Of a DNA stretch of 7,736 nucleotides, positions 2,574-7,695 are shown in pieces (the stretch's first letter is position 1; the number at the start of each line of letters is the position of its first letter). This DNA is from a virus. Taxonomy: Duplodnaviria > Heunggongvirae > Uroviricota > Caudoviricetes. The notes under the pieces are model-generated. The model made no database searches. It saw nothing but the letters and a program-made list of their open reading frames with translations, and was not told the DNA's origin. Both the position numbers and the translations under genes were made by a program. The stretch lies in the IMG/VR virus record IMGVR_UViG_3300029762_000084; one strand, given 5' to 3'.

Positions 2574-2694
2574 TTCATTGCTCCAGACGAATGATATGAT
2601 GCAACCATGATGTGATTGCATACCGAAATGGTACTATTGAGTATTTATCCAGTAGGTTACGATGCCATTCCACCCAACTGGTGAGGCATCAAGG
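2574..2694. promoter_or_regulatory. Divergent intergenic region between tailspike and Mnt-like gene; candidate promoter/operator region
   Basis: A 121-bp non-coding gap between two divergent start codons. It contains ATGAT(G) direct repeats and a 6-bp inverted repeat, atgcaa-N11-ttgcat, at 2599-2621. I could not identify a sigma70 -35/-10 pair with confidence by eye. Confidence 0.35.
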
Positions 2695-2961
2695 ATGTAC
2701 AGCAAATACGATGAGGCGCAGTTTCACTTGAGACTTCCGCATGAACTCCACGCGAAAATTAAGCAGCGTGCGAAGATGAATAACAGATCGCTGAACTCAG
2801 AGATAATTGCAGCGATTGAAGAATCGTTGGCTAAACAAAGCTCTGCATCCGTTTACATTGACGATGCAGAGCGTATGGCAGAACAACAATCTGATATGGT
2901 TAAGAAAATGGTTTTTGAAACGCTTAAGACCATGTATAGCAATAATAAAAAGGAAACATAG
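2695..2961 (+). CDS. mnt: Mnt-like ribbon-helix-helix transcriptional repressor (Arc/Mnt family)
   Basis: The N-terminal QFHLRLPHELHAKIKQRAKMNNRSLNSEIIAAIEESL fits the Arc/Mnt RHH pattern of beta-strand plus two helices. The C-terminal DAERMAEQQSDMVKKMVFETLK closely resembles the P22 Mnt tetramerisation region (NDAERLADEQSELVKKMVFDTLK, from memory). GAGG lies 8 nt upstream of the ATG at 2695; the track's upstream ATG at 2662 has weaker support. Stop is TAG at 2959-2961. Confidence 0.8.
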   Translation: MYSKYDEAQFHLRLPHELHAKIKQRAKMNNRSLNSEIIAAIEESLAKQSSASVYIDDAERMAEQQSDMVKKMVFETLKTMYSNNKKET

Positions 2962-3031
2962 AAATCTAGTTTCCGGCTAAAATGGCATTGCCTTCATGCT
3001 ATCCTGTGAAAAACTAAGGAGAGTTAACCAT

Positions 3032-3517
3032 ATGAAAAAATTACTGTTAATTATCCCGCTTCTGCTGGTTGGATGCGCAAAAGTAAGTGACTATCAAGCA
3101 AGTTGCGAACAACGCTATCAAAAGCTTAGCGATATGGCTAATTGCCTTGATGCCAGTGTGAAGAACGACTCACGCATGGCATCAGCACCAACACCTAAAC
3201 TATATGTCCTTGCTGCAAAGATGCTCGGGCAAGGTGTCGATGAAGGCAAGATAAGTGACGCACAGGCAAGACTTGAGCTTCAGAATCTTTATGTTCAATT
3301 ACAAAGCCAAGAACAAGCCCAACAAATAGCACAAAGCCAAGCATTCCAGCAGGCTTTATTGAATTATCAGGCTGTAAACACAATGCAAGCGATCGAGCAA
3401 AAAGCGAGACAGCCTGTTATAACTCAACCCTATCCAACACGAGTTGACACTTACACAAACTGCAATTCAGGATTTGGAAACACGGTAACATGCAACAGTA
3501 GCAGTAGCATCAGATAA
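3032..3517 (+). CDS. Putative lipoprotein of unknown function (161 aa) with a Gln-rich predicted coiled-coil centre
   Basis: AAGGAG lies about 8 nt upstream of the ATG at 3032. The N-terminus MKKLLLIIPLLLVGC is a typical signal peptide with an L-V-G-C lipobox. The residue after the lipid Cys is Ala rather than Asp, suggesting outer-membrane sorting. The mature protein has four further Cys and a Q/A-rich heptad-like segment (LELQNLYVQLQSQEQAQQIAQSQAFQQALLNYQ). The track's upstream start at 2996 has no RBS. Confidence 0.75.
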   Translation: MKKLLLIIPLLLVGCAKVSDYQASCEQRYQKLSDMANCLDASVKNDSRMASAPTPKLYVLAAKMLGQGVDEGKISDAQARLELQNLYVQLQSQEQAQQIAQSQAFQQALLNYQAVNTMQAIEQKARQPVITQPYPTRVDTYTNCNSGFGNTVTCNSSSSIR

Positions 3518-3607
3518 CAATCAGCAAAGGTATCGCCTATGCAGAGGGATACGATAAACCTCGCGTTCTACATATTTGGTTTTTGCACGTTCCTGGTGTT
3601 TGAAAGG

Positions 3608-5605
3608 CTATTCTGACAACGAATCAGACTTCGCACCCTGCGTCAGTGCATTAATCGCTTTTTGCGCTTGCTGCATGGCTTTCTCAAACGCTGTCGATCC
3701 GCGTGGTGTGTTTGCCATTCGTAGCATTGCATTTCTGAATGGCTCACTCTCATAGGCGCGAGTAAGAAGTCCGTAGCTTACCGCTGCGCCAGTTGTCGCC
3801 GGGTTCATTGCTGTCCCATACCCGATAATGAACGGGATGGTTTGCTGCCCTGTTGGTGTTGTTACTGCCGCTTTTGCAGCCTGCTGCGTGGATTGCAGGT
3901 AGTTTTTCAATCCTTTCAGATAAGCAGCGTCCTGCCCCTTAAATGTGATGCCAGTCTGGTTTTGCAGGATGTTAAGCTGCCGAAGGAACTGGTCAGGGGA
4001 TCCGCCAGATTTCTCCATCGCCTTTCCAATGATGCCATTGCGCATTTGCGCCCTGCCAACACGACCAACTGAGTTATACAGCGTCTTAATTTCCGATTTG
4101 TTCTTGCTGAATAGCATGTTGTTGACAACTTCCGGCGTCAGGTCTCCTTTCATGAGAACATTCTTCAGCCTGGTATTCTTTAGTTTCGCCGCTTCGTCAG
4201 CGTAGACGGCATTGGCCTGCTGATATTTACGGAGAGTATCGTTGCCAAGATTCTGACCAATGGCACCATTGATATCGTCAGTCATTGCCTTGTAAACGCG
4301 CTGAATGGCAGCATCGGAACGGTTTGGTAACACTGGTCGCTCACCCTTCACGTCCATTCTGAACTGGCTGCGCAGGTCGCTTAATTGCTTCAAATCCAGA
4401 TTTACCGGACCATCAGGGCCAGCATTGCGAACAAGCTCATCACGATATGACTGAAGTTTTGAAATTGTCTCGTTATCAGCTACCTTACCAAGCTTCTGCA
4501 GATTAGATATCTCAGTATCAATCTGCTGAATTGCTCGCGCAGGCTGAATGTTTACTCCAGCCATAGCATTCTGAACCTGCTCCAGTCGATTACCGGCGGC
4601 ACGACGAATTCCTGATGTTTTCGCTTTAAGGCTGTCAATAACAACAGCTGGATCATACTCACCGAATTTATCAGCAAATCTCTGCACCAACTGGCTTCTC
4701 GCTTCCTGTTGCGTTGCTCTCATTCCGCTTGTGCCAGCCAGGGGGATATTTTCCGCTGTCGTCTGCGCCATTTTCCCGACGCGGGAAGTAGGCTGTAACA
4801 GGTCTGTGGTGTGCAGAGGAACTCCTTCACGCTCTGCAAATCTGATAGCCTGCTGCGCTTCTGGCGCAATAGCACCACGAACGCCACGATAAGCAGCACC
4901 TAATCCACGTCCGGCAGCGTTAATAGCACCGCCAGCCAGCACACCAACGCCTAAATCGGTGGCGAGTGCTTCCGCATCATCTTTCGCACTATTTGCAGCA
5001 AGTGATCCAACTGCGTTTTCAGCGAGAAGGCGAGTTGCACCCTGAGCAATTCGACCAGCAAGTGTTGGTGCCTGTGTTGCCGCTCTCTCAACGCCAGCAG
5101 GAGTGAGGTAAGGCAATGCTTCAGCAAATACCCTTCCCTCTGTCGTTTGTGGAGTCAGCGCGCCTTGCTGAAGGCCAAAGTCCTGCTCTAATCCCTGCGT
5201 TGTTACTCGTGGCGCTGGTTGATATGTACCATCGCCAATGCCGAGTTTACCGCCAGCCCAAGCCGCCGCGCTTGTTACAGCATCGGCAACTGATGCAGGT
5301 ATGTTTGCCACGTTCACGCCAGCCTGCACCAGTCCGCGACCAGTCTCTTTTACTGCTTCGCCAAGATCAGACATAAATCCACTTTGCTGTGGTTGTTGCT
5401 GTGCTACTGGTTGCTGTGTCTCCACTGGCTGCACAGATGGCAATGGATAGGCAGCATAGAAAGCTTGCTTAGCCTGCTCTGCATTTTCTCCGGCTTGCGG
5501 GGCCACGACTTCATTGAAGTATTGCTCCTGAGCCTGCGCTTTTTGTTCTGGTGCTAACGCCTGATACTGTGGAGAGGCGATAACATCTTTCCATGCTTTA
5601 GCCAT
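3608..5605 (-). CDS. DNA ejection (injection) protein, P22 gp16-like
   Basis: A 665-aa ORF that is last in a gp7-gp20-gp16-ordered block. Its ATG overlaps the upstream stop (TAATG at 5603-5607), with GGGGTGA upstream. The protein is Ala/Gln/Gly-rich and low-complexity. The assignment rests on synteny and size (P22 gp16 is about 609 aa, from memory), not on a sequence search. Confidence 0.65.
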   Translation of the reverse strand: MAKAWKDVIASPQYQALAPEQKAQAQEQYFNEVVAPQAGENAEQAKQAFYAAYPLPSVQPVETQQPVAQQQPQQSGFMSDLGEAVKETGRGLVQAGVNVANIPASVADAVTSAAAWAGGKLGIGDGTYQPAPRVTTQGLEQDFGLQQGALTPQTTEGRVFAEALPYLTPAGVERAATQAPTLAGRIAQGATRLLAENAVGSLAANSAKDDAEALATDLGVGVLAGGAINAAGRGLGAAYRGVRGAIAPEAQQAIRFAEREGVPLHTTDLLQPTSRVGKMAQTTAENIPLAGTSGMRATQQEARSQLVQRFADKFGEYDPAVVIDSLKAKTSGIRRAAGNRLEQVQNAMAGVNIQPARAIQQIDTEISNLQKLGKVADNETISKLQSYRDELVRNAGPDGPVNLDLKQLSDLRSQFRMDVKGERPVLPNRSDAAIQRVYKAMTDDINGAIGQNLGNDTLRKYQQANAVYADEAAKLKNTRLKNVLMKGDLTPEVVNNMLFSKNKSEIKTLYNSVGRVGRAQMRNGIIGKAMEKSGGSPDQFLRQLNILQNQTGITFKGQDAAYLKGLKNYLQSTQQAAKAAVTTPTGQQTIPFIIGYGTAMNPATTGAAVSYGLLTRAYESEPFRNAMLRMANTPRGSTAFEKAMQQAQKAINALTQGAKSDSLSE

Positions 5606-6993
5606 TAATCACCCCATAGTGAAGAAAAGTTACTGCTGGCTGCTGGCTGTGATACCTGTGCAGGTTGAGATTGCTGCCGCTGAGATTTACCAACATTAAC
5701 GTTATATTGTTGGTTGTAATTGTTGGTGTATTCCTTAATCTCACGAATCGACTGCTGCATAGCCTCCGGGCTTGAATAGTCAACCTGCGGCATCCCCTGA
5801 AAATACATCTTCGCTTCTGCAACGGTGTTAATACCACTGGCACCCATGTCCCTTGCTGCCGCCACACCCTGATTCTGCATTCTGCCCTGAATCCGTTGTG
5901 CTGAGTTATATAACTGGCGCTGCTCTTTTCCTGTTAATCTGCTGCGAACATCAGCACCAATTGCTGGATTACCTGCACCGCCTGTCATTCCTGTCATGAA
6001 ATCGAGAGCAGAAGCGTCTGCATTTGCGATCGCTTCGATATCCTTCTTCATGGCATAGTTTTGAGCTGATGCAGACGATGTTGCAGGCGCTGCGATTGAA
6101 CTGGCAGGAACGCGAACCATATTCCCCTCGTTGTCGATGCCTTCGTAGAACGCATTTGCCCCAGCGCCGTGAAGTTTCCCGCCAACCGTTACAGTTCTGC
6201 CATCTGATAACTGAACTGTACGCTCATCATTCCCAGCGGTTCCTCTTGTTGACGCTCGCTGCATTGCCAAATCCTGCCCGCGTCGCGCAGTAGAAGCAGA
6301 TAAGTCCTGACCGCGCATCGTGATGTTCTGGCCTCGTGCTGTTAGCGCCTCGCCAGCCTGATTGCTGCGGATTGTCTCTGCAAGTTTTCCGCGATCAATC
6401 TCACGACCAGCCATCTTGTCCTGAACATTGAAGTAATCAATCGGACCAAGAGCAGCCATTCCAAGGTGATCAACAAACTCACCAAATCCTGAAGGATTCT
6501 GCTGATACATCTGAGCAACGTTATTAGGGTCAACACCGACGCGCGCCAGCTCATTGGCGTTGTTTTGCAGCCATGATTGCATTGCTTCTGGAGAAGATGA
6601 CGCAAGACGTGCGCCAGCCGCTAATGTACCGATAGAATTACGCTGGTCTTCATCAATGAATCCCATGCCTTTACGAACGGATTCAATCTGGTCTGGATAT
6701 TGAGTAGCCAACTGACGCAAAGCACCGCGATCACCAGAAGCATAAGCATTAGCGTATGCCTGCTGAAATTCTTTCTGCCGCTGAGCCTGCTTTTCCTGCT
6801 GAAACACCACCGCAATACCTGAAAGGCCTTGCAAAGCAGTCAGCCCAACATTGTTAGCGCCTGAACGCTCAATATCATTGTTCTGCCTGATAAGCTGAAG
6901 CGTATTGCCGATGTCATTTACGCTCGGAGCGTTTGAGTTGACGCCGCCGATACCAGCCAACAATCCGCCGTTTGTTCCTTGCCAAGTAGCCAT
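5605..6993 (-). CDS. DNA ejection (injection) protein, P22 gp20-like
   Basis: A 462-aa ORF (P22 gp20 is about 471 aa, from memory) lying between the gp7-like and gp16-like genes. GGGG lies 5-8 nt upstream of the ATG at 6993. Stop is TAA at 5605-5607. Confidence 0.65.
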
Positions 6994-7002
6994 GATTACC
7001 CC

Positions 7003-7695
7003 TTAAAACAACGAGCCAAGCAATCCGATACCAGCACCAATGCCAGCGCCCCAAGGCGTTGATGTTCCCAAAAGGCTGGCAAGACCTGCACCGGCAATCG
7101 CACCAGACGTGCCACCGCTAATTGCAGTCTGAAGACTTGATGGTTTATTGGCATTAGCAGCGGCAAGTGCTGCGCTTTGCTGTGCAATGCTGCTCATGTT
7201 GTTGGCGTACGTCTGCCCGGCGTTTGCCTGACCTTGCAGCGCACCAAGCCCAACGTTTGCCAGATTGTTGTAATTGCTCATCTGATTTGATAACCAAGAC
7301 TGACCGAGAGTCGGCGCGATCGTAGCCAGTTGATTGCTTGTGGCTGTCGAACCAAGTCCACCCGTCGCCTCCGCAGCAGCAAGACTCTGGTAACGCGCCT
7401 GATCTGCAAGGTCTTTATACTGCTGAGAGTTGTAATACTGATTAAGTGCCTGCCCCTGACCTTCTAAACTGGAAAGATTCTGAAGCTGGTTAACATACTG
7501 CTCCGCAAGCGGCGTGAACGGAGCAAGGTTTTTCATGATCGTCTGCCACTGCTGATTTTGCAGGTCTGCGGCATACTTCTGGGCTTCTGCTGCATACTTT
7601 GCGCTTTTATCAGAGCTACCACCTTTCCCGCCTTTTTCAGGGCACCAAGGTTCCTCGCCGCGCAGTTTTCTGCCCAGCTTAAATGCATATAACAT
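7003..7695 (-). CDS. DNA ejection (injection) protein, P22 gp7-like
   Basis: A 230-aa ORF (P22 gp7 is about 229 aa). Its N-terminus MLYAFKLGRKLRGEEPWCPEKGGKGGSS resembles the P22 gp7 N-terminus as I recall it. The C-terminus is Gly/Ala-rich and hydrophobic (GAIAGAGLASLLG...GAGIGAGIGLLGSLF), consistent with a membrane-inserting ejection protein. GGGAGA lies upstream of the ATG at 7695. Confidence 0.7.
   Translation of the reverse strand: MLYAFKLGRKLRGEEPWCPEKGGKGGSSDKSAKYAAEAQKYAADLQNQQWQTIMKNLAPFTPLAEQYVNQLQNLSSLEGQGQALNQYYNSQQYKDLADQARYQSLAAAEATGGLGSTATSNQLATIAPTLGQSWLSNQMSNYNNLANVGLGALQGQANAGQTYANNMSSIAQQSAALAAANANKPSSLQTAISGGTSGAIAGAGLASLLGTSTPWGAGIGAGIGLLGSLF

Follow-up and report, generated by a model that had tools for sequence, protein, structure and literature searches.

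A lipoprotein gene in the sieA position of a P22-like phage and its possible part in blocking phage entry

The 7,736-nucleotide stretch of tailed-phage DNA studied here (IMG/VR record IMGVR_UViG_3300029762_000084, hereafter the window) forms the right-hand end of the genome of a temperate P22-like phage, as judged from gene content and from Pfam and PHROG matches. At positions 3032..3517, on the plus strand, it carries a gene for a small lipoprotein in the place that sieA occupies in P22. Very probably this is a genuine gene whose product is a lipoprotein and which behaves as a moron expressed in the lysogen. As to its role, we tentatively favour (probability about 0.4) an envelope-level block to phage entry, which would act in the periplasm of the lysogen.

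The lipoprotein and its relatives

The coding sequence extends from an ATG at 3032 to a TAA at 3515-3517 (+) and specifies 161 amino acids. Read from the sequence, a Shine-Dalgarno-like motif, AAGGAGAG, occupies 3016..3023 (+), 8 nt upstream of the ATG, and homology to phages Gally, 720R6 and VSe13 begins at about position 3015. An in-frame ATG at 2996 was ruled out as the start, since all of the aligned homologues (31/31) begin at the MKK position. That the open reading frame (ORF) is a real gene and not a chance one is indicated by the 98 homologue clusters described below, by low ratios of nonsynonymous to synonymous substitution rates (dN/dS, 0.04-0.07) and by RNA sequencing coverage of a 96%-identical orthologue. 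Measured against phage Gally, dN/dS was 0.07 and, against Salmonella phage VSe13, 0.05, and the comparison of the two phages with each other gave 0.04; by these sequence comparisons the gene is under strong purifying selection.

The protein starts with a signal peptide, MKKLLLIIPLLLVGC (3032..3076, +), which has a positive n-region, a hydrophobic h-region and the lipobox L-L-V-G-C15 (MKK-LLLIIPLL-LVGC15), as in signal peptides of the signal peptidase II (SPII) type. C15 is the predicted lipidated residue and is followed by Ala at +2. The LLVGC lipobox had been pointed out in a first-pass annotation of the window, and the alignments confirmed it: a PROSITE-type lipobox is kept in 82 of 82 full-length homologues and C15 is invariant. 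At +2 the close family has A, V or T, and 98 pattern-scored lipoprotein representatives of the wider superfamily have A, T, S, V, G, Q or L; D is found in neither set. Under the Lol sorting rule for Enterobacterales, Asp at +2 is the Lol avoidance signal and its absence a mark of sorting to the outer membrane. From the Ala at +2 the protein is predicted to be anchored in the inner leaflet of that membrane. The signal peptide is the only hydrophobic stretch, the remainder of the protein being predicted to form soluble helices and a hairpin.

Four further cysteines, also noted at first pass, proved to be conserved: C25, C38 and C154 are invariant and the equivalent of C144 is near-invariant. The core domain (residues 16-100; 3077..3331, +), common to the wider superfamily, is a predicted four-helix bundle containing C25 and C38. 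The Gln-rich segment (residues 84-133; 3281..3430, +) holds 16 of the glutamines in a protein with 21 of them among its 161 residues; it lies inside a predicted long helix and its length varies among homologues. A predicted C-terminal beta-hairpin (3449..3505, +) carries C144 and C154 in a TNCxxxGNxxxCxS motif. The "Gln-rich coiled-coil core" of the first-pass annotation stood as to its glutamines, the coiled coil being a predicted long helix only. An AlphaFold2 model, proposed at that stage as a check and built from 131 sequences, reached a mean predicted local distance difference test score (pLDDT) of 78. It places the four-helix bundle at about residues 18-100 (pLDDT 84-95), a single long helix at 76-125 as the continuation of the last bundle helix, and the strands of the hairpin at 140-146 and 152-158 (pLDDT about 60). 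In this model the conserved functional unit is the N-terminal four-helix bundle of ~85 residues with its conserved cysteine pair; it leads into a Gln-rich helix, which differs in length between homologues, and the chain ends in a small hairpin clamped by cysteines.

The only family match was to PHROG 6067, of unknown function (E 6.9e-109, residues 1-161 on profile positions 1-161 of 161), in agreement with the earlier statement that no named family could be recognised. No Pfam family was found at E <= 0.1, Bor and TraT included; the NCBIfam scan gave nothing meaningful, the anti-phage defence models of PADLOC-DB 2.0 gave 0 families at E <= 0.1, and a profile search of PDB sequences returned only WTAP coiled coils at E 0.55. 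Nor was there a structural match in the PDB. The NCBIfam model T2SS_GspK scored 18.9 bits, its cut-off being 130, and this hit was put down to noise caused by the Gln-rich stretch. The same stretch has almost certainly led to a wrong name for the homologue from Cronobacter dublinensis (P0022, 73% identical), which NCBI lists as "general secretion pathway protein GspK". Literature searches on the accession, on the LF82 locus tag and on P22-like phages together with lipoproteins found no description of the protein.

The 98 homologue clusters were recovered from 5.8 billion proteins, and almost all bear the name "hypothetical protein"; their hosts include Escherichia, Citrobacter, Serratia, Klebsiella aerogenes, Cronobacter, Yersinia, Pectobacterium, Morganella, Providencia, Xenorhabdus and Tatumella, among others; the exact protein of the window occurs on 54 contigs of E. 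coli. When 1.84 billion representative proteins were searched with a profile (E <= 0.001), 258 clusters were returned, mostly of lipoproteins of ~125-140 amino acids that have residues 1-100 in common. A lipobox and a Q-x-x-C-E / C-L core are the common features of this superfamily, usually with a C-terminal Cys loop (100 of 142 representatives), and the most distant matches cover profile positions 1-100. The clusters contained no Pfam domain, and all of those tested (10/10) matched PHROG 6067. In the P22-like clade the Gln-rich insertion is ~30 residues longer than in most superfamily members. One subclade, with 39% identity to the window protein across residues 1-96, lacks the lipobox cysteine and has a signal peptide of the signal peptidase I type. 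Loss of the lipid anchor is tolerated among the relatives, then, though loss of export was seen in none of them.

Several members of the superfamily are unusual. P0232 (295 amino acids) apparently consists of two tandem copies of the core domain. P0097 (167 amino acids, named "recombinase", Pfam ERF) joins the first ~50 residues of the lipoprotein to other sequence and is probably an assembly or frameshift artefact. A distant member (L016, 6208-6633) lies in an apparently chromosomal context, with uvrC, udg, earP and biotin genes, and is divergent from a gene for a PF04228 putative zinc metallopeptidase 145 bp away. Another relative was found in a small integrase-primase element, and three scans of viral contigs with distant members yielded no relatives.

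Location, mobility and expression of the cassette

The first-pass annotation had placed the gene in a slot equivalent to that of sieA, beside a Mnt-like repressor and opposite the late operon, and both the Pfam and PHROG matches of the neighbouring genes and the layout of P22 agree with this placement. A gene for a gp16-type ejection protein (3608..5605, -; phrog_770, "DNA transfer protein", E 1.7e-239) is convergent with the lipoprotein gene, and the tailspike gene (627-2573, -) forms the other border of the slot. Between the tailspike and lipoprotein genes lies the Mnt-like gene (2662..2961, +; Pfam Arc 1.1e-14, Repressor_Mnt 3.9e-12), separated from the latter by 70 nt on the same strand; the two are possibly co-transcribed in the window. 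In P22 itself sieA comes directly after gene 16 on the opposite strand, hence in the same place and orientation as the lipoprotein gene. This slot is also called the immI-sieA region.

Comparison of the slot across P22-like genomes, likewise proposed at first pass, showed the family to recur there in phages and prophages. Five sequenced phages (Gally, vB_EcoP-720R6, VSe13, Proteus phage Brookers and Salmonella "MS2 LVA") have it between gp16 and the tailspike gene, on the opposite strand, and it takes up the same slot in prophages of Yersinia ruckeri, Xenorhabdus bovienii, Morganella and Serratia fonticola. Across Enterobacterales, the location is kept in phages or prophages of Escherichia, Salmonella, Proteus, Yersinia, Xenorhabdus, Morganella, Serratia and Atlantibacter, and relatives of the signal peptidase I type also occupy the gp16-tailspike slot of P22-like prophages. 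The order mnt, then lipoprotein gene, seen in the window is repeated in Proteus phage Brookers and in the Serratia prophage; in some loci (L005, L008) the lipoprotein gene has the slot to itself. The interval has been described as a fast-changing "ant moron", with 10 types in 16 genomes (epsilon34 genome paper, PMC2629481).

The adjoining gp16 varies in length (617-779 amino acids) and belongs to differing families, so the gene is not tied to one type of ejection protein. The gp16 type of the window is often named "lytic transglycosylase domain-containing protein" by the NCBI annotation pipeline PGAP; no match to a transglycosylase domain was found in the window gp16 (3608-5605) among Pfam, NCBIfam or PDB sequences. 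This label enters into a rather improbable explanation, by which the lipoprotein would be an orphan immunity protein or inhibitor directed at a toxin or enzyme that acts in the periplasm, for instance a bacteriocin of the colicin or pesticin type, an amidase or muramidase effector of a type VI system, or a cell-wall hydrolase encoded by a phage. Immunity proteins to periplasmic toxins are commonly lipid-anchored or made with a plain signal peptide, and a periplasmic location by either route is what the family shows; moreover, T4 Spackle inhibits the gp5 lysozyme, and the gp16 neighbour so often carries the transglycosylase name. However, no toxin gene adjoins the lipoprotein gene in any inspected locus and the gp16 label lacks sequence support. 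The variant in which a Spackle-like protein inhibits a gp16 transglycosylase was reduced to a minor rival, there being no domain support for it in gp16.

The gene forms a separate and mobile cassette. Phage IME10 is ~94% identical to the window over mnt and the end of gp16, and the cassette is missing between the two; the stretch absent from IME10 runs approximately from 2962 to 3538 (2962..3538, +) and comprises the gene with a 70-nt leader and a 20-nt trailer. P22 also lacks the gene. The guanine-plus-cytosine (GC) content of the gene is 43.0%, with 37% at third codon positions (GC3), against 50-52% and 45-49%, respectively, in gp16, gp20 and gp7. The first-pass annotation had the direction of this difference right, although its figures (47% versus 55%) were not. 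Finally, a lambda-like prophage holds a relative of the signal peptidase I type that is 88% identical to the copy in an Atlantibacter P22-like prophage. It lies on the opposite strand, with membrane-protein morons that come after the tail-tip gene J on one side and a tail-fibre gene on the other.

Evidence of expression comes from Gally, the P22-like prophage of adherent-invasive E. coli (AIEC) LF82, whose gene GALLYPH_13 (LF82_138) encodes a protein 96% identical to that of the window; the expression figures for the lipoprotein gene refer to this orthologue only and are from Tables S1 and S4 of PMC9928086. In overnight cultures in lysogeny broth (LB), LF82_138 gave 78.2 and 62.2 normalised reads (mean 70.2), against a prophage median of 15.6 and a value of 727 for the C2 repressor; at 4.5x the prophage background it was second only to C2 among Gally genes (PMC9928086). 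Expressed as log2(fpkm+5), where fpkm stands for fragments per kilobase per million, the level was 6.29 / 5.96 in LB and 7.9-8.2 in the B1 and B6 samples, which presumably are bacteria kept in culture medium by themselves for 1 and 6 h. It reached 10.3 after 1 h in macrophages, about 16x the LB level, and was 8.5-8.7 after 6 h (log2 fold change 2.55 versus LB, q 4.7e-27), and the adjacent ejection genes gave 2.3-4.2 in all conditions (PMC9928086). The orthologue is transcribed in the LF82 lysogen independently of the late genes. The authors of that study stated that Gally has no morons (PMC9928086); this follows from their 5x cut-off of 78.1, LF82_138 falling just below it at 70.2 and LF82_139 reaching 51.1 against the median of 15.6. 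The latter gene (GALLYPH_14; L003, 4447-4866; 139 amino acids, PHROG 6823 of unknown function) adjoins the lipoprotein gene in Gally and does not occur in the window. It is induced more strongly than LF82_138, with log2 values of about 5.5 in LB, 9.8-10.5 in B1 and B6, and 11 in macrophages.

Together, the lower GC content, the presence or absence relative to IME10, the movement between phage types and the separate transcription of the orthologue in the LF82 lysogen support the view, already suggested at first pass, that the gene behaves as a moron. It is an accessory cassette in a variable slot of a P22-like temperate phage and is not needed for virion assembly or lysis. It is most unlikely that the protein serves the phage's own lytic cycle or its regulation, be it as a lysis or spanin-like accessory, in virion release, in protecting progeny from debris or in controlling tailspike expression. 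To be sure, the gene is adjacent to the late operon and convergent with it, and T5 Llp, which is thought also to shield progeny from receptor in debris, would provide a parallel. It is also the case that the slot affects read-through into the tailspike gene in P22 (PMC2629481). Yet the gene is on the strand opposite the late operon, is transcribed while the late genes are silent, is missing from many viable P22-like phages, P22 and IME10 among them, and resembles neither spanins nor any lysis protein in Pfam and PHROG scans.

The induction in LF82 bears on the main rival to a block of phage entry, namely that the lipoprotein is a lysogenic-conversion factor for the benefit of the host. It would then alter the outer membrane or periplasm during host association (under stress or in the face of antimicrobial peptides, serum or macrophages), in the manner of lambda Bor or TraT. 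We regard this as unlikely, the immunity and own-cycle roles being less likely still. In its favour, the orthologue is up about 16-fold at 1 h in macrophages relative to LB, and up in B1 and B6 too; the gene is present in pathogenic lineages (O104:H4 2011C-3493, AIEC LF82 and several strains from human sources); and a conserved host target would fit both the purifying selection and the chromosomal relatives. On the other hand, deletion of the whole Gally prophage left the survival of LF82 in THP-1 macrophages unchanged at 6 and 24 h (PMC9928086), and the protein has no Pfam match to Bor, TraT or others. In addition, all five AT-rich genes at that end of the prophage are induced together, which may reflect general derepression instead of a dedicated response, and the main text of a study of LF82 in the gut by CRISPR interference names neither the gene nor any lipoprotein.

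The proposed block to phage entry

Interference with phage entry nevertheless appears the most likely single role, because the cassette lies in the place of sieA in P22-like phages and, in the lambdoid prophage, among the morons that follow J, which is the reported site of cor; cor genes are found just after the tail-fibre genes of lambdoid phages. Action in the periplasm is suggested because loss of the lipid anchor is tolerated among relatives and loss of export was not seen, while masking of a receptor at the cell surface is less likely since the relatives without an anchor keep the same prophage slot. We postulate that the protein, made by the lysogen, would block genome delivery by an incoming phage from its position in the periplasm. 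The point of action would probably lie at or just beneath the outer membrane, where a conduit of the gp7/gp20 type or the tail tip of a siphovirus must cross. An anchor in the inner leaflet of the outer membrane would put the protein near the virion-proximal end of a gp7/gp20 conduit; the envelope positions of the gp7 and gp20 proteins are discussed in the SieA paper (PMC10883804). The lipoprotein would in that case be a functional analogue of SieA, Cor, Llp or Ltp built on an unrelated protein.

The distribution of sieA was also considered. No SieA-like protein was present among the other small proteins of the inspected slots. Of 5,426 complete E. coli genomes, 186 have the lipoprotein gene, in every case on the chromosome, and the carriers include O104:H4 2011C-3493, LF82 and several strains from human sources. 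HS1-type sieA was found in 21 of the complete E. coli genomes, making the lipoprotein gene about nine times more frequent, and a gp7-like gene in at least 1,167. A single genome, that of strain 980-2, has both genes, at different loci more than a megabase apart. We counted the absence of SieA-like proteins from the slots, the greater rarity of sieA and the separate loci of the lone double carrier in favour of the lipoprotein gene being an alternative to sieA.

A number of points weigh against a role in phage exclusion. No member of the family has been associated with any phenotype, the function being read from position and localisation alone. Strong purifying selection with no diversifying signal is atypical of an arms race between phages. 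In at least one case a member of the superfamily lies among ordinary chromosomal genes (uvrC, udg and bio genes), which implies a cellular, non-phage role of the fold somewhere, and the induction in macrophages and in culture medium could mean a role in host adaptation instead. As regards an independent transcription unit, promoter-like and terminator-like sites near the gene did not exceed their frequency in shuffled sequence. Consensus scans did pick up promoter-like sites upstream of it in the Gally, Y. ruckeri and Morganella loci, again at the level of the shuffles, and no terminator-like hairpin was found at 3518-3607, between the convergent genes (fold z-score -0.12).

The exclusion reading can be extended, as a long shot, to the superfamily as a whole. 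This would be an unnamed set of periplasmic, disulfide-stabilised four-helix bundles, with cellular members, captured repeatedly by P22-like podoviruses and lambda-like siphoviruses beside their host-entry genes, and would amount to a new kind of superinfection exclusion, in which genome delivery is stopped in the periplasm or at the inner face of the outer membrane. Its mechanism would be distinct both from that of SieA, at the inner membrane, and from the receptor plugging of Cor and Llp, and it could explain protection in some of the roughly two-thirds of P22-like lysogens that have no sieA. Indeed, sieA is carried by 22 of 66 P22-like phages, only about a third of those sequenced (PMC10883804). 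The other occupants of the slot are largely undescribed; the lipoprotein is a frequent one, and the O104:H4 outbreak strain and the Crohn's-associated LF82 are among its carriers. Should a block to phage entry prove correct, a new protein family and a new envelope layer would be added to the mechanisms of exclusion, with a bearing on host range in phage therapy; should the protein modify the host envelope, an overlooked conversion factor would be present in pathogenic E. coli.

Surrounding genes and comparison with known systems

Ahead of the tailspike gene the window contains the C-terminal part of an integrase (108-545, +), whose stop (545) is separated by 81 nt from the tailspike stop (627). 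This proximity implies that the window is in phage (non-integrated) gene order, or that attP lies elsewhere. The true start of the tailspike is M17 of the listed ORF, as in P22 gp9 (region 2573-2621); it carries the P22 head-binding domain (Pfam Head_binding, residues 17-128), and the best PHROG is a "colanic acid degradation" tailspike. The receptor-binding part (627-2234) has 36.6% GC and 22.6% GC3, values much lower than those elsewhere in the window and suggestive of a recent gain. The interval 2574-2961 has mnt without arc or ant; the true start of the Mnt-like gene is probably M12, at 2695. A near-palindrome of 23 bp, ATGCAACCA-TGATG-TGATTGCAT (2599-2621), in the tailspike-mnt intergenic region could be the Mnt operator. 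Between the stops of the lipoprotein and gp16 genes lies a hydrophobic ORF of 25 amino acids, MQRDTINLAFYIFGFCTFLVFERLF (3539-3616, +), that overlaps gp16 by 9 nt. It is kept in IME10 without the lipoprotein gene, and there has a better Shine-Dalgarno sequence (GGAGG); it does not occur in the Proteus and Yersinia loci and could be either a small membrane peptide or a chance ORF. Upstream in the late operon are the genes for the gp20-type (5605..6993, -; Pfam Inj_translocase 5e-77) and gp7 (7003..7695, -; Pfam P22_gp7 1.8e-134) ejection proteins.

Among known systems, P22 SieA (types A, B and C) is the closest in genetic terms. The two genes share slot and orientation, their products are of similar length (164 versus 161 amino acids), and both belong to P22-like prophages of the same genera; SieA is expressed from the prophage, and the LF82 orthologue of the lipoprotein gene is transcribed in the lysogen. 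Homology was ruled out, as BLASTP against P22 SieA gave no alignment at E <= 100, and there was no PHROG SieA match. SieA spans the inner membrane several times and carries an FxRYPxEAxxFNK motif on the cytoplasmic side (PMC10883804), whereas the lipoprotein lacks this motif and this topology, has one cleavable lipobox signal peptide, and is predicted to be periplasmic and anchored in the outer membrane. The position between genes 16 and 9 of a P22-like prophage is hence a shared location and not a mark of family membership, and the difference in localisation implies that the lipoprotein, if it excludes phages, does so at a different layer of the envelope.

Cor of phi80, N15 and HK022 and Llp of T5 are, like the window protein, phage-encoded outer-membrane lipoproteins; they are small and inactivate FhuA. 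The relative in the lambda-like prophage lies at a site comparable to that of cor. However, the PHROG Cor profile (phrog_1119) matches the signal peptide only (residues 1-31, E 0.0058), and the lipoprotein is about twice as large, has a different predicted fold and has relatives without a lipid anchor. Lambda Bor, Iss and plasmid TraT are outer-membrane lipoproteins encoded by lysogens or plasmids that confer serum resistance or surface exclusion. With them the gene has in common that it is an accessory outer-membrane lipoprotein gene and an independently expressed moron opposite the neighbouring phage genes, but its product has no Pfam match (E <= 0.1) and differs in fold and length.

Ltp of Streptococcus phage TP-J34 and T4 Spackle have as their targets the tape measure protein and the gp5 lysozyme, respectively, and the lipoprotein has no structural match in the PDB to link it to either. 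Like it, they are encoded by phages or prophages, extracytoplasmic and largely helical, with disulfides or a lipid anchor, and they act on the delivery apparatus of the incoming phage and not on its receptor, which is the mechanism proposed here for the lipoprotein. The gene, annotated in databases and uncharacterised, is best called a phage moron lipoprotein on an unrelated, unnamed family.

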